A DNA stretch of 25,328 bases, taken from assembly GCA_050012475.1 (NCBI GenBank), contig JBEKHC010000121.1, positions 1 to 25,328 on the forward strand, read 5' to 3'. Position numbers: made by a program. Origin of the DNA: Candidatus Velthaea sp. Its GTDB lineage: Bacteria; Vulcanimicrobiota; Vulcanimicrobiia; Vulcanimicrobiales; Vulcanimicrobiaceae. Shown one piece after another: positions 1 through 6,000 of this stretch. Position 1 is the first letter of the stretch; each line of letters starts with the position of its first letter.

Positions 1-3000
1 AGCGTAACCAACAACGAAAGTGGAGGATATGAGGTCTATCGCGCAAGCAAGGCTGCACTCAACACACTCATGCGGAGCTTTGCCGCACGACACGCAGGCG
101 ACAATCGAACGCTGCTGCTCTTGGCGCCGGGCTGGGTGCGCACCGACATGGGAGGGCCGAAAGCACGTCTGGGCATCGACGAAAGCATTCCCAGCCTCGT
201 AAACACCATCGAAGCGCAACGTGGGAAGACCGGGCTGCAGTACCTCGACTATCGCGGGCAAACCGTGCCCTGGTAGCGATAGAGGCTCCGTTGCCTCGAA
301 CAAAACCACGTCACGCAACATGGTTTTGATCGACCTCGACTCGAAAACCGAAGTCGCGCCTTTGCGGCGGTTAGCGTCCGGTCGTCGAGTGCCACTGGGC
401 TGCCGTCTCGCGCGAGTGCCAGTACGCAGCGATCTCGCCCGCGAACCCTTCGTACGTCCGCGGCGAATGGCCGAGCAGTGCCGTTAGGGGTTCCCGATCG
501 CGTGGGCCGGCCGCGAAGCCGCGCTCGAGATACCCTTGATACATATGCGGATGTCGAAGGCCGACAGGCCGGAGCGCGCACGCAGCACCCTGATGCTCGA
601 TGCAAACTGGTTCTAAACACCGCTGCTATGCTTTCGCCGCCGAGTCTGCAAAAAGCGCTTTCTCTTAAAGGCGAGCGCCGCATCAGCGAAGCGGTGCGCC
701 GGCAAACGGAAGAGTACAGCCCGTCTGATTTTGGGCAGGCTCCGAAAGTGCCGGACTCTCGGCCCGTGCCGCTCTTCCGCAAGAGGGCGAACGGGTCCGG
801 CGAATTCCTTAGCCGGAGCGCGGGCGAGTGCGATTTCTGAGCCGAGCGTGGAGTTTTCGATCAAAGCGCGAAAACACTGACCCGCGAACTTGACGACCCG
901 GAGGTTATCGATGCGAATGTTGTCCTCACGCGCGCTATGTTTCGTCGCGTGCTTGCTGTTGGGCGCCGCGATGGTGAGAGCTGCATCCGCGCAGCCGTCG
1001 CCGGGAGACCGGTCAGTCCGTGCGGCGATCGATGCGGCCGTGCAAAAGGAGCGTAAGATTTTTGGCGGGCATACGCCGGTTCCCGGCGTGCTCATCGAAG
1101 TCTCGGACAAGACCGGCAACTACGTGCGCACGTATGGTTACGCCGACCTCGCAACGCATCGCAACCTCACCGCCCAAGATTATTTTCGTATCGGCAGTAA
1201 TACGAAGACCTTCGTGATCAGCGTACTCTTACAGCTCGTCGATGAGAAAAAACTCCGCCTTGACGACCCGCTCAGCACGTTTGCGCTGGGTGTGGACATT
1301 CCTAATGCCCAGAACATCACGGTGCGCGAACTGTGCCAAATGCGCAGCGGTCTGTTCGAGGCCTATAATACGCCCGAAATTGCCAAAATGAACATTACCG
1401 GAAAGTCGACGTTTGATGCCCGGACGCTGGTAGGATGGGCCGTGCATCAAAAGCTGCTTTTCGCACCCGGCACGAAATACAACTACAGCAATACGAACTA
1501 TTTGATCCTCGGCCTCATCATCGAAGCCATAACGAAAGATACGGTCGCGCACGAAATCGAAGATCGTCTGCTGCGGAAATTTGCCCTCAGCCATACGTCG
1601 TATCCGGAAACGCAAGAAATGCCGAATCCTTGGGCCCACGGCTACGGCTTGAACGCGAAGAAAGGGTGGGACGATGTCAGTGGCACGATACCCGTTTCGC
1701 TGATGGGTTCCGCTGGAGAGATGGTCTCCGACATGCAGGACATGACGACCTGGACGAAGCTCTACGTCACCGGTAAAACGAACGGTGCGGCGACTCAAAA
1801 AGAGCGGCTGGATTGCATCTACACGGGAAAAGGCAACAACTACTTCGGTTTGGGGATCGGGTGCAGCGCCGGGTACTTCGGCTATACCGGCGGGCTCCCG
1901 GGCTACAACACGGCGAACTTCTACGAGCCGTCCACCGGAACGTTCATCCTCGCGTGGGTGACCGTGCAAAACGATACGCCCGCACCGGGCGTTGCGAATG
2001 CGATCGCTCGCGAGATCGCTCGTATCTTAACCCCGGATCACGTTCCGTTCTTGGTCACCGCCGAGGCGGCGAACACGCGACCCCACCGGCAACCGGCCCG
2101 CTTCGTGCACGGCAGGTAGGAAGCCGTTTCTGGCGGCACGTCCGCGAAATCGGCACCGACGCCGGCCGGTGCGCGAGAAGCGCTCAGCAGCTGTGCGCTC
2201 GCAAGCGGCCAGGGGTTCGGACCGACGCCGGCGTCGCCGAGTTTCACGGCGGCCGGACGCTTCTGTCCATCAGGTGTGTTTTGGCGTGGGCCGGGCTGGG
2301 CAATGCGTTGTCGGACCAGCCGGTTAATCCGCTGGCATGCAGGACGATGAGGGAGTTGGACGATGCTTGATGATGACGTTTCCGACAGTGGAGCAGAGGG
2401 TAAGGCCGACGGCGGCGCGAGTGGGATCGCGGGTGTGCATGACGGCGGTGCGGACGGGGGAGCTGAGGGTCCAGCCGACGGCGGCGCATCGGGAAAGCCC
2501 GGCGTGCATGACGGTGGGGCGGACGGCGGTGCCGAAGGTCCAGCCGACGGCGGCGCGTCGGGAAAGCCCGGCACGCATGACGGTGGTGCGGACGGCGGCG
2601 CCTGACGTCAAGCCGGAGTCGCGCGCGGGCAGGCGGCCGTTGCGGCTTTCCCGCGCGTAACTTTTGCGGCGAGCAGCGCACTCCCGCGAACTCGAAGTTG
2701 GGAGTGATGAGCAGGTGACGGCCGATCCTTTACTGCGAGCCACCGGGCTCTCGGTGAGCGAGTTCGCAGCATCGCACTGGGGGAGCGTTCCGCTGCTTCG
2801 TCGACACTCCGAACTCCCCGGCGAGGGTTTTGCCGACTTGCTTACGCTCGCCGCGGTCGATGAGCTGCTGTCGCGACGCGGGCTGCGCACGCCGTTCGTG
2901 CGCATGACGCGGGACGGCAACGTCTTGCCGCCGCGCCGGTTCACGCGCGGCGGCGGGGCCGGCGCGGACATCGCCGATCAAGTCGCCGACGATTTGGTCC

Positions 3001-6000
3001 TAAGCGAGTTCGCTGCGGGCGCGACGCTCGTGTTGCAAGGTTTGCACCGCCTGTGGCCGCCGGTACAGGAATTCGCGGTTGCGCTCTCGTCGCAGCTCGG
3101 GCATCCCGTGCAAATCAACGCCTACATCACCCCGCCGCAGAATACGGGCTTCGCTGCGCACTACGATGTCCATGACGTCTTCGTGCTTCAGTTTGCCGGC
3201 ACCAAGCGTTGGCGCATCCACCAACCCGTTTGGCCGGCGCCGCTCCGCGACCAGCCGTGGGACATGCACAAGACGGCCGTCGCTGCACGTGCCGCCGAGA
3301 TACCGCTTCTGGAGAGCGTGCTCGAGTGCGGCGACGCGCTCTACTTGCCGCGCGGCTATATTCACGCGGCCTCGTCGCTGGGTGAGGTTTCCGGACACCT
3401 CACCGTCGGAGTGCACGCCGTAACGCGTCACACGCTGGCAACGCAAGTGTTCGCGGCGCTTTCCGACGACGTCGAGCTGCGCCGGTCATTGCCGGTCGGC
3501 GTCGACTTGTCGGATGCCGACGTCCTTTCCGAAGAACTCGAAGCGACGGTTGCCGCGCTGCGGAGCGCGATCGACCGCCTCGATCGCGGCGCCGTCGCGC
3601 GGGGCGTGGGCAAGCATCTCGCCGAAACCACGCGTCCCGCGCCGCTCCGTCCGCTCGAACAGTTGTCGGCGGCCGCGACGCTGTCTCCCAAAACGCAGTT
3701 GCGCTTGCGCCCGGGACTGCGCCTGACGCTGCGACCCGACGGCGAGCAGCTTGCGATCGAGTTGGCCGATAAAGACGTTCGGGTGCCCGCCGCAGCGGCC
3801 GAAGCCGCGCGTGCTGCAACGTCGGGGATCGCCGTGACCGCCGAGAGCCTGCCGGGCATCGATGTCGCCGCAGCTTTGACCATGCTTCGACAATTGCTCC
3901 GTGACGGGATTCTCGTGCCGGTATGATGGTCGCTGAAGCAGGCATCAGCTGACCGCGCGCGGCTATCGCTGCGCTGTCCATGCCGAATTGCGCGGCGATT
4001 CCATGCTCGGCACGGCATCGCCGCACGCGCGAGTCTTGCTCGTGCACCAACCGGGGGCGTGGGGGCCGCGCGGTTTGGTCGAGAGCCGATGCGATCCGGA
4101 CGTTGCACGTCGAATCGACCGTGCCGCTGCCGACGCGGGGATGCGCCTACAGGCGATCCGCCGGCCCGGGAAACACGAAGTCGGCCAACCGGCCGGCGGC
4201 TATCTCGTGGGCATCGCTGATACGCGCGGCGAGCCTCCGGCGATCGTGTGGTGGCGCACCGACAGCTTGGCAGATATCGCCGCGGAACTGGCCGGAGGAT
4301 TCCCCCGCCGGCCGCCGGCCGAGATCGACACGGCTCCGATGTATCTCGTGTGTGCTCACGGGCGTCACGACGCGTGCTGTGCGTTGCGCGGCCGCCCCCT
4401 CGCGCAAGCCTTGCAGGTCGCGCGGCCAGGCCGGGTTTGGGAGACGACGCATTTGGGCGGTGATCGCTTTGCGGCAAACCTCCTGGTCTTGCCGACAGGT
4501 GAGCTGTACGGGCGGGTAACGCCGGACGTTGCCGCCGAGTTTGCCGATCGCGTCGACGCAGGCGAAGTGGTGCCCGGACTCATGCGTGGACGCATCGGCC
4601 TTGCACCGATCGCGCAGGCTGCGCTGATCTACGCGCACGACCAACTCGGAATCGTGGCTCGCGATGCGTTATCGGTACGCTCGGTTCACCGTGTCGATGC
4701 CCAGCGCGCGCATGCAAACGTCGTTACCCCGCGGGGCCTGATCGTAGTGACGGTCGGCATCGAAACGAGCGCGGCTGCGCAGTTGACCTGTCGCGGACCC
4801 CAGGGGGCGCGGGCACGCGAATACCGCGGACTCGCAATTACGGAAGTTGACACCGACAGCGTCCTATCATAGCTTGGGTTCGATGCGTTCGCTTTCGCTA
4901 TAGATTTCTATCGGGTAGCCGTCCGGATCGTGGACGCGGCCGACGTACACGGGGCCGCGTTGAACCGGTGCCTCCACGATCGGCACATTCTCTGCGCGAA
5001 AATGCTCGAACCAGGCATCGACGTCCGCAGCGCTGTCGACGCGGAAGCCGAAGTGAAAGCCTCCGCCGATGTGCGGCGTCCCTTGTGCGAGGACGAGCAG
5101 AAACGTGGGCGTGTGAATGCGAATCGTCGTTTCGGTACGTACGGCGGGCAAGGCGAAGACGTCGCGATAAAAGCGTTCGCTTGCGGCGAGGGAGGCGACA
5201 TCGAGATTGAGGTGCGTAACGGAGCGCGCGGCGAGTGATTCCGGGGCCATAGCGAGAGCGCTTTACGCGCACCCGATTCGCCGCGCCTTCCGGTCGGTGC
5301 AGGCTTGCCCAAATCAACATACCGAAGGCCCGGGAAGCCGAGGGATTGATCGCTCGAACGTGCAGACGTCGCCAGACATCGAGCGAGACCGCTTGCTGTT
5401 CGCGGGTTGGCCGGGTGCGGACATCAACGGACTCGCGTGCCGCAGCGAATACAGAAGTGGATCGAACGAGTCGGCGATTGCCGCGGCTTGCTGCATGTGT
5501 TCATATGCTTCTTGATTTGCCTGCATCGCTTCGAGCGCAGCCAGGGATCGCCACTGCACATAGTTGGCGATGCGAGAGCCGTCCAGACTCTTGTGCAGCT
5601 TTGCCGAAATAAACCCCGGCTGATGCCGCATCGTGTTTTCGGTCGCGTGCACCAAAAGCGCCAGCAGTTCCTCCGAGCGATCGGGGTGTCCGGTGAACCT
5701 GTTGATGAGGACGATGTGTTCGTCTTCCGGCAGGAGAGCAATCATAACGGAGCCGGAAACGGGGCGGCGGCCTGTCCGGCGTTCCGTTTAAGGCACGCGG
5801 GCGGGAGATCGCTCCGATACGCTGGCGACGAAGGCCCCGATGTCTTCGGTGAAGCGCTCTTTTTCCGCGAAGATCAAGCCGTGCGACGCACCTTCGTAGA
5901 CGAGCAGCGTGCAGCCGGGAATACCCGCGGCCGTACGCTGGGCGGTGAGCGCAAGCGGTGTGAAGGTATCAGCATCGCCGTGAATCACGAGTGTCGGAAT

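Follow-up and report, generated by a model that had tools for sequence, protein, structure and literature searches.

What does a NO66-related JmjC oxygenase do when its gene is fixed between a tiny acidic repeat peptide and a sucrase-ferredoxin gene? In the stretch of Candidatus Velthaea sp. DNA analysed here (25,328 nucleotides; the window), these three genes form one cluster behind a stress-type promoter candidate. We consider it likely that the acidic repeat peptide is the substrate of the oxygenase and is hydroxylated after translation, as an earlier survey of the genome had proposed. This reading gains support from the linkage seen in enzyme-anchored searches, the exact co-occurrence of the three genes, an intact Fe/2-oxoglutarate (2OG) site and a domain resembling RiPP recognition elements (RREs). 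Our best reading of the sequence data, put forward tentatively, is a stress-induced, uncleaved cytoplasmic peptide that would be multiply hydroxylated on Asp.

Organization and linkage of the gene unit

The features of the cluster, all on the + strand, are:

2278..2303, +, SigF/SigB-type promoter candidate, GTTTT (-35) and GGGCAA (-10), of the form GTTT-N16-GGGCA, ending ~60 nt before the peptide start
2349..2355, +, Shine-Dalgarno-like GAGGGAG, 7 nt before the peptide ATG
2363..2605, +, acidic Gly/Ala/Asp repeat peptide (ORF, 80 aa), presumed substrate
2363..2380, +, leader-like N-terminal motif MLDDDV, from alignment; putative leader
2390..2598, +, 69-bp tandem array coding a 23-aa repeat unit (TRF: 3.0 copies, 83% matches), with synonymous divergence
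2707..2718, +, three-codon mini-ORF whose TGA overlaps the oxygenase GTG start
2715..3926, +, ROX-fold JmjC Fe(II)/2OG oxygenase, 403 aa, GTG start (PF08007, E 3e-25; model pLDDT 89)
3666..3923, +, C-terminal winged-helix domain of the oxygenase, homologous to the MINA53/NO66 domain and shaped like PqqD/RiPP recognition elements
3923..3952, +, nine-codon mini-ORF overlapping the oxygenase stop (ATGA) and the ferredoxin CTG (CTGA)
3949..4872, +, Apd1/Aim32-like sucrase-ferredoxin, 307 aa from a putative CTG start (PF06999, E 1e-18)

Metagenome loci were sampled with the enzyme as anchor (best 80 of 589, 49-80% identity). The peptide lies directly upstream of the oxygenase in 78 of 79 informative loci of this sample, and at least two peptide motifs precede the enzyme in 77 of the 80. 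At locus L043 the tail of the peptide is visible at the contig end, L052 comprises 15 bp of upstream sequence only, and L088 has no peptide motif in the 256 bp upstream of the enzyme. The ferredoxin gene follows in 59 of 60 long loci. All 11 other genomes with an enzyme orthologue (61-73%) also carry the peptide. In the host family (207 genomes), the same 12 genomes, and no others, have the orthologue, PF06999 and clustered DGGADG[GS]A; no clustered repeat was found in genomes that lack the enzyme. The counts overstate independence because the loci are kin, near-duplicates included. These data show that the peptide, oxygenase and ferredoxin-like genes are inherited together as a single unit, in which a small gene is fixed beside a modifying enzyme as expected of a RiPP precursor. 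The constant peptide-oxygenase link described by the survey is thus borne out, and the worry that its repeat-based locus search had biased the linkage is removed.

No fourth gene recurs in more than 4 of 45 neighbourhoods, and flanking genes vary. A conserved protease or transporter was found in none of the 45, in line with the survey's finding, and host proteases may act in trans. We likewise reproduced that none of the three products belongs to an NCBIfam family. The enzyme tree suggests Actinomycetota as the source of a transfer, the host soil lineage seemingly having acquired the cassette, and our literature search found no description of a peptide-oxygenase-ferredoxin unit.

The repeat peptide

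The peptide is Gly-rich, hydrophilic and acidic (28 Gly, 14 Ala, 13 Asp; GRAVY -0.65; pI 4.05) and lacks a hydrophobic signal. The three repeats that had been ascribed to it are present as HDGGADGG motifs at residues 26, 49 and 72; the 23-aa unit in full occurs only ~2.4 times at the protein level. Seven of the nine base differences between repeats 1 and 2 fall at third codon positions, with seven synonymous codon changes and one non-synonymous change. This bias, together with the GAGGGAG before the ATG, indicates that the ORF is coding.

DGGADG is present in 75 of 75 full peptides, and its Gly and Ala are as invariant as its Asp; of 1099 Asp residues, 80% have Gly as the next residue. A His stands before DGGAD 90 times and HDGG occurs in 43 of the 75, whereas 19 contain no His at all. 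Pro is found in 65 and EGP in 49. The number of repeats and the spacers differ freely among peptides (49-280 aa), and neither a cleavage site nor the C-terminus is conserved. The survey had reported no leader. A strict hydrophobic-plus-acidic N-terminal motif (family consensus M-x-L-x-D-D-D-[MI]-x-T) is nevertheless present in 51 of 73 peptides and missing in 22, so that the statement holds only in part.

Homologous peptides carry the database label 'BatC protein', as a source name only. BatC is a Bacteroides aerotolerance TPR protein; our peptide has no Pfam or NCBIfam match that would place it in that family, and the label is probably a mis-transfer.

The JmjC oxygenase

Among solved structures, NO66 ranks first (E 3e-21), followed by MINA53 and by the YcfD enzymes of R. 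marinus and E. coli (E 1e-8 to 1e-5), which reproduces the order, NO66 before bacterial RoxA, given by the survey. A Foldseek search with the oxygenase model likewise returned NO66 (E 1e-26, TM 0.73). The predicted model and fold searches reveal both the helical dimerisation region and the C-terminal winged-helix domain of ROX enzymes. The metal ligands H149, D151 and H217 and the 2OG ligand K164 are intact and invariant in 39 of 39 alignment rows; H149, D151, K164 and H217 align with NO66 H340, D342, K355 and H405. As judged from the sequence, the mini-ORF at 2707..2718 may couple translation to that of the oxygenase.

The model of the C-terminal domain (pLDDT 94.7) matched MINA53 (VIA Z 12.4), NO66 (9.2) and PqqD (7.7; rmsd 2.4, 79 aligned), then MccB (7.0), TbiB1 (6.9) and PbtF (6.8), and Foldseek agrees; the RRE matches (Z 6.5-7.7) lie below Z 8, where common arrangements can score. 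NO66 and MINA53, whose substrates are ribosomal proteins, also have the RRE-like fold.

Eight pocket residues (V106, Q108, H111, R112, Q133, N135, Y137 and G232) are the same in 56 loci with His-bearing peptides and in 18 of 19 with His-less ones, one row deviating; H111 and R112 are kept in all 19. The conserved pocket residues are basic (R58, R63, H111, R112), whereas two RoxA outgroups are acidic or neutral there in a rough alignment. A sister enzyme (L127, 37% identical) shares R58, R63, V106, Q108, R112, Q133, N135, Y137 and G232; it follows a different Asp-rich, His-less repeat peptide, and no ferredoxin gene comes immediately after it.

Many proteins belong to the enzyme family: of 8000 scored candidates, 5838 reach E <= 1e-30, a count that takes in distant relatives. 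All three distant plasmid homologues that were examined adjoin thiopeptide genes, peptidases or a 48-aa ORF. Databases annotate the family as L16 Arg81 hydroxylase or NO66, labels that are probably wrong for the cassette enzyme.

The sucrase-ferredoxin protein

The third gene, as named by the survey, is confirmed by its PF06999 match (68 bits versus a cut-off of 34.9), with its start now likely at 3949. Because a start at TTG 3988 would leave out a conserved N-terminal Cys (C8), translation probably begins at CTG 3949 and not at 3988 or 4003. The same CTGA arrangement at +25 after the oxygenase occurs in L006, L007, L038 and L039, and L013 has an ATG at +28. C135 and C144 form the C-X8-C pair and, together with H168 and D172, the putative [2Fe-2S] ligands. 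HxGGD (HLGGD in the window) is found in 48 of 50 readable cassette copies and Cys is the fourth ligand in two; HxGGH is absent from these 50, and all 8 stand-alone copies taken from the same phylum have it. No solved relative was found by sequence.

A candidate stress promoter

Of 61 upstream regions, 18 contain the strict promoter motif (shuffled sequences give 0.13 on average and 1 at most; the reverse strand gives 2). With a variable spacer it occurs in 14 of the 17 closest loci; the baseline in genome G000 is 7 of 2520 long ORFs. The consensus, GTTT-N15-17-GGG(T/C)A, was taken from PMC4694148. G000 shows no genome-wide excess of the motif (122 versus 122 in a swapped control), nor was it found there before ku or the ytxH-rsbV-rsbW-sigma operon. 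A cognate sigma of G000 scores over the TIGR02980 cut-off and has RsbW- and RsbV-like partner ORFs (both named by eye), and a TIGR02980 match over cut-off is present in 192 of the 207 family genomes. The conserved motif suggests a SigF/SigB-type promoter before the cassette.

Proposed mechanism and alternatives

A SigF/SigB-type general-stress sigma factor would transcribe the three genes, and stop/start overlaps may couple translation of the peptide, oxygenase and ferredoxin genes. Binding of the disordered acidic peptide would probably involve the oxygenase's RRE-like domain and basic residues near the pocket, and with Fe(II), 2-oxoglutarate and O2 the enzyme would hydroxylate many sites, most likely the Asp beta-carbon in the invariant D-G-G-A-D-G. 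Asp is likelier than His because 19 of 75 peptides are His-less, all contain DGGADG and NO66 Ser421 is replaced by Gly; overall, we regard Asp as a plausible though still tentative assignment. The modified peptide would stay whole in the cytoplasm, since protease, exporter and hydrophobic signal are all absent. Beta-hydroxy-Asp is an alpha-hydroxy-acid chelator, as in siderophores, and clustered residues could chelate metal, Fe(III) above all; a role as metal buffer is doubtful. The Cys2-His-Asp ferredoxin might supply electrons, either to re-reduce the enzyme iron or to free iron from the peptide. The fullest version, a never-cleaved cytoplasmic metal sponge in which a NO66-like enzyme turns a dozen Asp into chelators and the ferredoxin releases the iron, is decidedly unlikely.

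The target residue could be another. NO66-like hydroxylation of His in HDGG draws on NO66 being the nearest solved relative, on the retention of its Tyr328 and Asn326 as Y137 and N135, on the frequent His before DGGAD and on a Gly-rich context resembling Rpl8. In NO66, Tyr328 and Ser421 bond the target His and Arg297 binds the NHXH motif (PMC4556315); here Ser421 is an invariant Gly (G232), Arg297 is Val (V106) and the window's peptide lacks NHXH. The survey's emphasis on His (HDGGADGG, NO66-type) is further undercut by the His-less peptides, whose enzymes keep the same pocket, and we rate His hydroxylation the least probable alternative. According to one study, the human enzymes NO66 and MINA53 show strong selectivity for His and are inhibited by Asn or Gln analogues (PMC9994133); the literature read contains no demonstration of a ROX-family enzyme that hydroxylates Asp. 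Other chemistry on the peptide, namely Gly alpha-hydroxylation with backbone cleavage, Ala or Pro hydroxylation, or further oxidation of hydroxy-Asp with the Fe-S protein, is unlikely. It would fit the invariant Gly and Ala, the second iron protein fixed in the unit and the two-step Asp oxidation by SmaO-SmaX to aminomalonate, and PF08007 enzymes hit varied residues (Ile, TcaO; Orn, BipG; Phe, CzlI) in the published excerpts available. However, many peptides have no Pro-containing motif, the literature presents the Suc_Fer fold as an electron carrier or redox switch and not as an oxidase, and the sister system has no ferredoxin directly behind its enzyme.

The peptide could instead be a co-regulated partner, either an acidic protein that inhibits or chaperones the oxygenase or a hydrophilin-like stress protectant, the enzyme having another target, e.g. 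ribosomal, under stress. We find this somewhat unlikely, even though the nearest solved relatives are ribosomal oxygenases, ROX enzymes can be inhibited by substrate-like peptides, and a Gly-rich, hydrophilic product stands behind a stress-type promoter. A private substrate fits better than a housekeeping target because the enzyme occurs in just 12 of 207 family genomes, always with the peptide; the lack of the clustered repeat where the enzyme is missing and the basic pocket, set against the roughly aligned RoxA outgroups, also speak against a mere partner. A classical RiPP, whose hydroxylated repeats host proteases would excise for export as small molecules, would account for the leader-like N-terminus, RRE-like domain and repeated cores, and distant enzyme homologues have peptidases and transporters in their clusters. 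The 45 neighbourhoods without a conserved protease or transporter, the variable repeats and spacers and the unconserved cleavage site and C-terminus make it very unlikely.

Should hydroxylation prove true, bacterial enzymes that look more like human NO66 than like RoxA would gain a substrate, a bacterial Apd1-like ferredoxin with an uncommon set of ligands would have its first defined partner, and the general stress response in Actinomycetota and the host soil lineage would acquire a protein-modification arm. With Asp as its target, the oxygenase would be, to our knowledge, the first Asp-hydroxylating ROX enzyme. A positive modification result would show whether the ROX winged-helix domain acts as an RRE, and the sponge, if real, would store iron and counter Fenton chemistry by means unrelated to ferritin or Dps. 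The cassette is self-contained and small enough for one-step co-expression.

Comparison with known systems

The cassette enzyme has the whole three-domain fold of NO66/RIOX1, MINA53/RIOX2 and YcfD/RoxA (JmjC_2, PF08007) in common with them, as well as the HxD...H triad, the 2OG Lys and the equivalents of NO66 Tyr328 and Asn326. It also carries the HxT motif, which Iyer et al. assign to the bacterial versions that are close to NO66 of eukaryotes. Compared with NO66, Tyr328 is kept and Ser421 and Arg297 are replaced, so that the histidyl-hydroxylase signature is incomplete. True RoxA is tied to purB (L004, L005), whereas the cassette gene goes with the gene of a small acidic peptide and occurs patchily, a distribution that argues against a housekeeping role.

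The promoter candidate has GTTT-N15-17-GGGTA/GGGCA and a typical distance in common with the SigF regulon of Mycobacterium smegmatis and SigB-type promoters. The tables of that regulon have no entries named 'sucrase' or 'BatC', a label look-up from which cassette membership cannot be read.

The ferredoxin's C-X8-C-X23-H-x-G-G is close to the published C-X8-C-X24-75-H-X-G-G-H of Apd1/Aim32 [2Fe-2S] ferredoxins (PF06999); the H-x-G-G-H ligand pair is absent, Asp (48/50) or Cys (2/50) replacing the second His that all eight stand-alone copies retain.

JmjC enzymes that hydroxylate precursor peptides are described, in the parts of the literature accessible to us, for curacozole (CzlI, Phe), biphenomycin (BipG, Orn) and thiocupinamide (TcaO, Ile; PF08007). 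As in the cassette, a JmjC Fe(II)/2OG enzyme stands beside a peptide gene; these enzymes carry out tailoring reactions within large clusters that also encode class-defining enzymes, whereas the cassette oxygenase is the sole evident modifier, its peptide is an acidic repeat of low complexity and the unit has no linked protease or exporter. RiPP Asp beta-hydroxylases include SmaO and also CinX/DurX, YhhC and CanE (cited in PMC12186529). The terms 'JmjC', 'cupin' and 'ferredoxin' are absent from the main text of the SmaO paper. SmaO acts at two sites of a cleaved, exported precursor and hydroxylates Asp that precedes Gly in a DGDG motif, and most cassette Asp also precede Gly; the likeness noted between the two systems is one of target context.

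The acidic repeat peptide

The survey's finding of an 80-aa repeat peptide ahead of a JmjC gene and a sucrase-ferredoxin gene was borne out by the open reading frames, by matches to PF08007 and PF06999 and by synonymous divergence within the repeat. The three genes are real and share one strand of the window; none of their products matched an NCBIfam family.

Features of the window (position, strand, description)
890-2119, +, PF00144 beta-lactamase-family serine hydrolase, apparent signal peptide present, lies ahead of the cassette
2363-2605, +, acidic repeat peptide, 80 aa, ORF
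2715-3926, +, JmjC protein (oxygenase), 403 aa, PF08007, E 3e-25
3949-4872, +, Suc_Fer-like gene (ferredoxin), putative CTG start at 3949, PF06999, E 1e-18
5788-6492, -, alpha/beta hydrolase ORF, 234 aa
Downstream of the cassette, opposite strand, glyoxalase, ABM and hydrolase genes

The window peptide contains 28 Gly, 14 Ala and 13 Asp residues (pI 4.05). Its gene is a 69-bp array, and because the copies vary mostly at third codon positions (seven synonymous and one non-synonymous codon changes between units 1 and 2) we regard it as real coding sequence. Upstream sequence of at least 450 bp was available at 75 loci, whose peptides measured 49-280 aa (median 83), with a median of 15 Asp residues and a median net charge of -17. 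DGGADG was present in all 75, and Asp was followed by Gly in 80% and by Ser in 9% of 1099 cases; this constancy is partly built in, since the peptide finder needed DGGA/DSGA-type motifs, yet it failed to pick up a peptide at only one informative locus. His occurred in 56 and HDGG in 43 of the 75 peptides. The peptide had been described as having no leader, which holds for part of the family: a leader-like N-terminal motif, a hydrophobic residue followed by three acidic ones, was seen in 51 of 73 peptides (two mis-called starts were dropped), and the rest are devoid of it. Many homologues in Amycolatopsis, Leifsonia, Streptomyces and Ornithinibacter bear the database name 'BatC protein', a label that no family match supports and that is probably mis-transferred, true BatC being a TPR protein of Bacteroides aerotolerance. 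Some peptides (L054, L068 and L100) carry His-rich inserts (GHE repeats, HEH) ahead of the DGGA repeats, a hint that the chain binds metal even when unmodified.

At seven loci (L008, L010, L014, L016, L017, L001 and L038) the peptide's stop codon and the oxygenase frame overlap, with no ATG, GTG or TTG present; the junction reads CTGA in several and TAGC with no evident start in L008 and L038. Non-standard initiation or a fusion made by frameshifting is therefore possible at these junctions.

Linkage and distribution

The three genes are inherited together. Among 300 further genomes from the phylum, 11 hold an oxygenase orthologue (61-73% identity), all remaining matches reaching at most 37%, and each of the 11 has the peptide upstream and the ferredoxin downstream; in G221 the contig end cuts the locus and the repeat motif is still visible. 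A metagenome scan with alignment A1 of the oxygenases yielded 589 relatives. Among the best 80 (49-80% identity), 77 have at least two repeat motifs upstream of the oxygenase; L043 shows only the peptide tail at a contig end, L052 has just 15 bp upstream and is uninformative, and L088 has no repeat motif in 256 bp. The constant peptide-oxygenase link claimed by the survey is thereby recovered from the enzyme side, in 78 of 79 informative metagenome loci and 11 of 11 genomes. Equally, the sucrase-ferredoxin gene was confirmed behind the JmjC gene in 59 of the 60 loci whose downstream sequence spans 900 bp or more (window locus counted; L079 is the sole exception), all these linkage counts being inflated by kin and near-duplicate loci.

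In the host family one and the same set of 12 of 207 genomes carries the orthologue, a PF06999 match and clustered DGGADG[GS]A repeats, with two unpublished genomes (G248 and G231) tallied as non-carriers in all three counts. The carriers span eight genera and are patchy inside them (two of four in the host genus). Single, isolated matches to the DGGADG pattern occur in 10 further, enzyme-less genomes of the phylum; of seven fetched, six were readable and look like chance frames.

Clustering of ORFs from 45 neighbourhoods gave no fourth cassette gene past close-kin synteny or broad families (maximum four loci), in agreement with the reported absence of a protease or exporter; the ORF picking was coarse and overlooked many ferredoxins, and it may have passed over a small fourth gene as well. 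The flanking genes in the window are not conserved with the cassette, and the ORF at 5788-6492 may be without its N-terminus because its Pfam match starts only at position 25 of the model. In two loci (L003/L125 and L038) the cassette adjoins a gene that by eye looks hemerythrin-like, and L003 also holds a catalase-peroxidase-like ORF; these neighbours are consistent with a stress context.

Close orthologues lie on records assigned to Candidatus Eremiobacteria/Eremiobacteraeota (L001 and L002), and database proteins are named for the same phylum too. Family member G113 and L002 have nearly identical peptides, and L003 shares its peptide with family member G268. No relative was found among 12 pattern matches on viral contigs, and no carrier among the RNA runs listed. 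Plasmid records gave 150 matches, all below 60% identity (28-40% for the 30 listed). A scan of genome contigs with a single protein returned only three close loci and two RoxA loci; the actinobacterial contexts therefore rest on unnamed metagenome contigs and protein names.

A tree was built from 20 oxygenase rows, all top matches (seven host-family, eight named actinobacterial, five outgroup). The enzymes of the host family group as a single clade (100/99) inside the actinobacterial ones (98/96), and a quick tree of 64 rows agrees. Actinobacterial monophyly was rejected at a modest p-AU of 0.037; the group was named ahead of the trees, and the test was picked after the first tree had been seen. 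Acquisition of the enzyme from Actinomycetota is favoured by these trees, not proven.

Fold and substrate pocket of the oxygenase

The oxygenase model (pLDDT 89) matched NO66 best, along its full length (E 1e-26, TM 0.73), followed by MINA53 and YcfD. The catalytic site is intact: the iron triad (H149, D151, H217) and the 2OG lysine (K164) are invariant in the alignment. Kinship with NO66, which the survey had recognized, thus stands as the best fold match. The histidyl hydroxylation that was read from it fares less well. Tyr328 and Asn326 of NO66 are retained in the window oxygenase; Ser421, which bonds the target His in NO66 (PMC4556315), is replaced by an invariant Gly, and Arg297 by Val. 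The pocket is identical in the 56 loci with His-bearing peptides and in 18 of 19 with His-less ones. NO66 is reported to be inhibited by acyclic (Asn, Gln) His analogues (PMC9994133). Because Ser421 is replaced, the pocket hardly differs at loci with His-less peptides and the peptide of a sister enzyme (L127, below) has no His, His is an unlikely target. Judged from the sequences, Asp is the functional side chain common to the peptides, and the oxygenase is a predicted ROX-fold enzyme whose pocket departs from that of NO66.

Folded alone, the C-terminal 86 residues (pLDDT 94.7) were closest in fold to the winged-helix domains of MINA53 (Z 12.4, rmsd 1.9 over 83 aligned residues) and NO66 (Z 9.2). 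Lower matches included PqqD (Z 7.7), MccB (7.0), ThcOx (6.9), TbiB1 (6.9), PbtF (6.8), TigE (6.7) and a lasso B1 protein (6.5); an unrelated methyltransferase scored in the same range (Z 7.9), and a sequence profile of the domain found nothing in the PDB below E 0.39. A survey of RRE domains describes RRE-like folds fused to PF08007, with bacterial homologues in RiPP-like contexts (PMC12710340). The modelled domain is RRE-like by fold, a likeness that does not prove peptide binding.

The ferredoxin and its start

Cassette ferredoxins share C-x-H-G-x-x-D-x-C-C, followed by H-x-G-G-D in 48 of 50 readable copies and by HxGGC in the other two; four further copies are cut off. The eight stand-alone copies, taken from other families of the phylum, all have HxGGH, the Apd1/Aim32 motif (PMC11138216). 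Because of this difference, the cassette proteins form a subfamily of their own, with Asp as the likely fourth ligand. The ferredoxin had no PDB match up to E 1.

A conserved N-terminal Cys lies upstream of TTG 3988, and in most relatives the ferredoxin start overlaps the oxygenase stop. For the window, L007, L038 and L039, an out-of-frame mini-ORF begins at this overlap, and its TGA shares bases with an in-frame CTG at exactly +25; L013 has a like arrangement with ATG at +28. We infer that the window gene starts at CTG 3949.

A conserved promoter motif

Of 61 loci, 18 have a conserved promoter motif, GTTT-N15-17-GGG(T/C)A, ahead of the peptide gene, while 100 shuffles averaged 0.13 and the reverse strand gave two; GGGTA alone occurs in 25 of the 61, with 5.9 expected by shuffling. 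The 61 exclude loci with little sequence upstream, as well as 11 that were near-duplicates or had mis-called starts. Among the 17 closest loci 14 have the motif, in one case as GGGAA; it lies 48-81 nt ahead of the start, with freely varying spacers; the background in the host genome, G000, is seven of 2520 long ORFs. The motif is the SigF consensus reported for M. smegmatis (PMC4694148). In G000 YtxH-like, RsbV-like, RsbW-like and SigB/F/G sigma genes stand in a row (G000:C83:11410-13401, L160), so that the sigma gene adjoins anti-sigma- and anti-anti-sigma-like genes; such a sigma is encoded in 192 of 207 family genomes, 14 unpublished genomes included. Genome-wide in G000 the motif was not enriched (122 matches versus 122 in a swapped control), and it was absent before ku and before the ytxH-rsbV sigma operon; of the stress-gene controls there, CsbD and Mn-catalase were not found and DUF892 fell below the cut-off. 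The cassette was not recognisable in the M. smegmatis SigF tables, in which genes stand only as hypothetical. A sigma-70 promoter scan found none, terminator-like matches were at chance level, a hairpin at 2600-2725 between the peptide and oxygenase genes was not significant (z -0.70), and Rfam gave no match. The motif and the sigma gene suggest that a stress sigma transcribes the cassette.

Related peptide-oxygenase pairs

In L127 (G250:C15, 7700-9159) a sister JmjC enzyme of 37% identity, with most pocket residues in common, lies directly behind another Asp-rich repeat peptide; no ferredoxin follows. That peptide has four 13-aa repeats with DDAGRDD, and its N-terminus resembles the acidic leader motif. 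At five loci (L024, L026, L028, L032 and L019) ORFs of 40-70 aa directly precede JmjC homologues of 28-37% identity; four have a Y-x-x-P leader-like start and Asp/Cys/Gly-rich tails and one a Gln/Asn tail. By sequence, these may be further unstudied pairs of the phylum. L130 (G203:C1, 7066-14419) holds four tandem ROX-like JmjC genes and an interspersed fifth ORF in 7.4 kb, and L131 and L132 have two such genes each, next to further putative modifying enzymes. On Streptomyces plasmids, the three distant homologues that were opened all sit in RiPP-type clusters with peptidases.

Proposed function and comparison with known systems

We propose that the oxygenase would bind the peptide and beta-hydroxylate it at multiple Asp residues, the product remaining uncleaved in the cytoplasm. 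Beta-hydroxy-Asp chelates metal in siderophores; more speculatively, the product might do likewise, and the ferredoxin might supply electrons.

The cassette is real and widespread, and the literature searched, mostly outside subscription journals, held no description of it. Iyer et al. 2010 surveyed the neighbourhoods of bacterial MINA/NO66-like genes (PMC2938197); its main text has neither 'ferredoxin' nor 'thioredoxin' and section 11 is without the cassette, which the supplementary neighbourhood tables might list. Both chemical elements of the proposal have precedents: CzlI, BipG and TcaO are JmjC enzymes that hydroxylate precursor peptides, and SmaO carries out Asp-Gly-directed Asp hydroxylation. 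The cassette differs from a classical RiPP pathway in being without protease and exporter, and would work like a minimal RiPP-type modification system.
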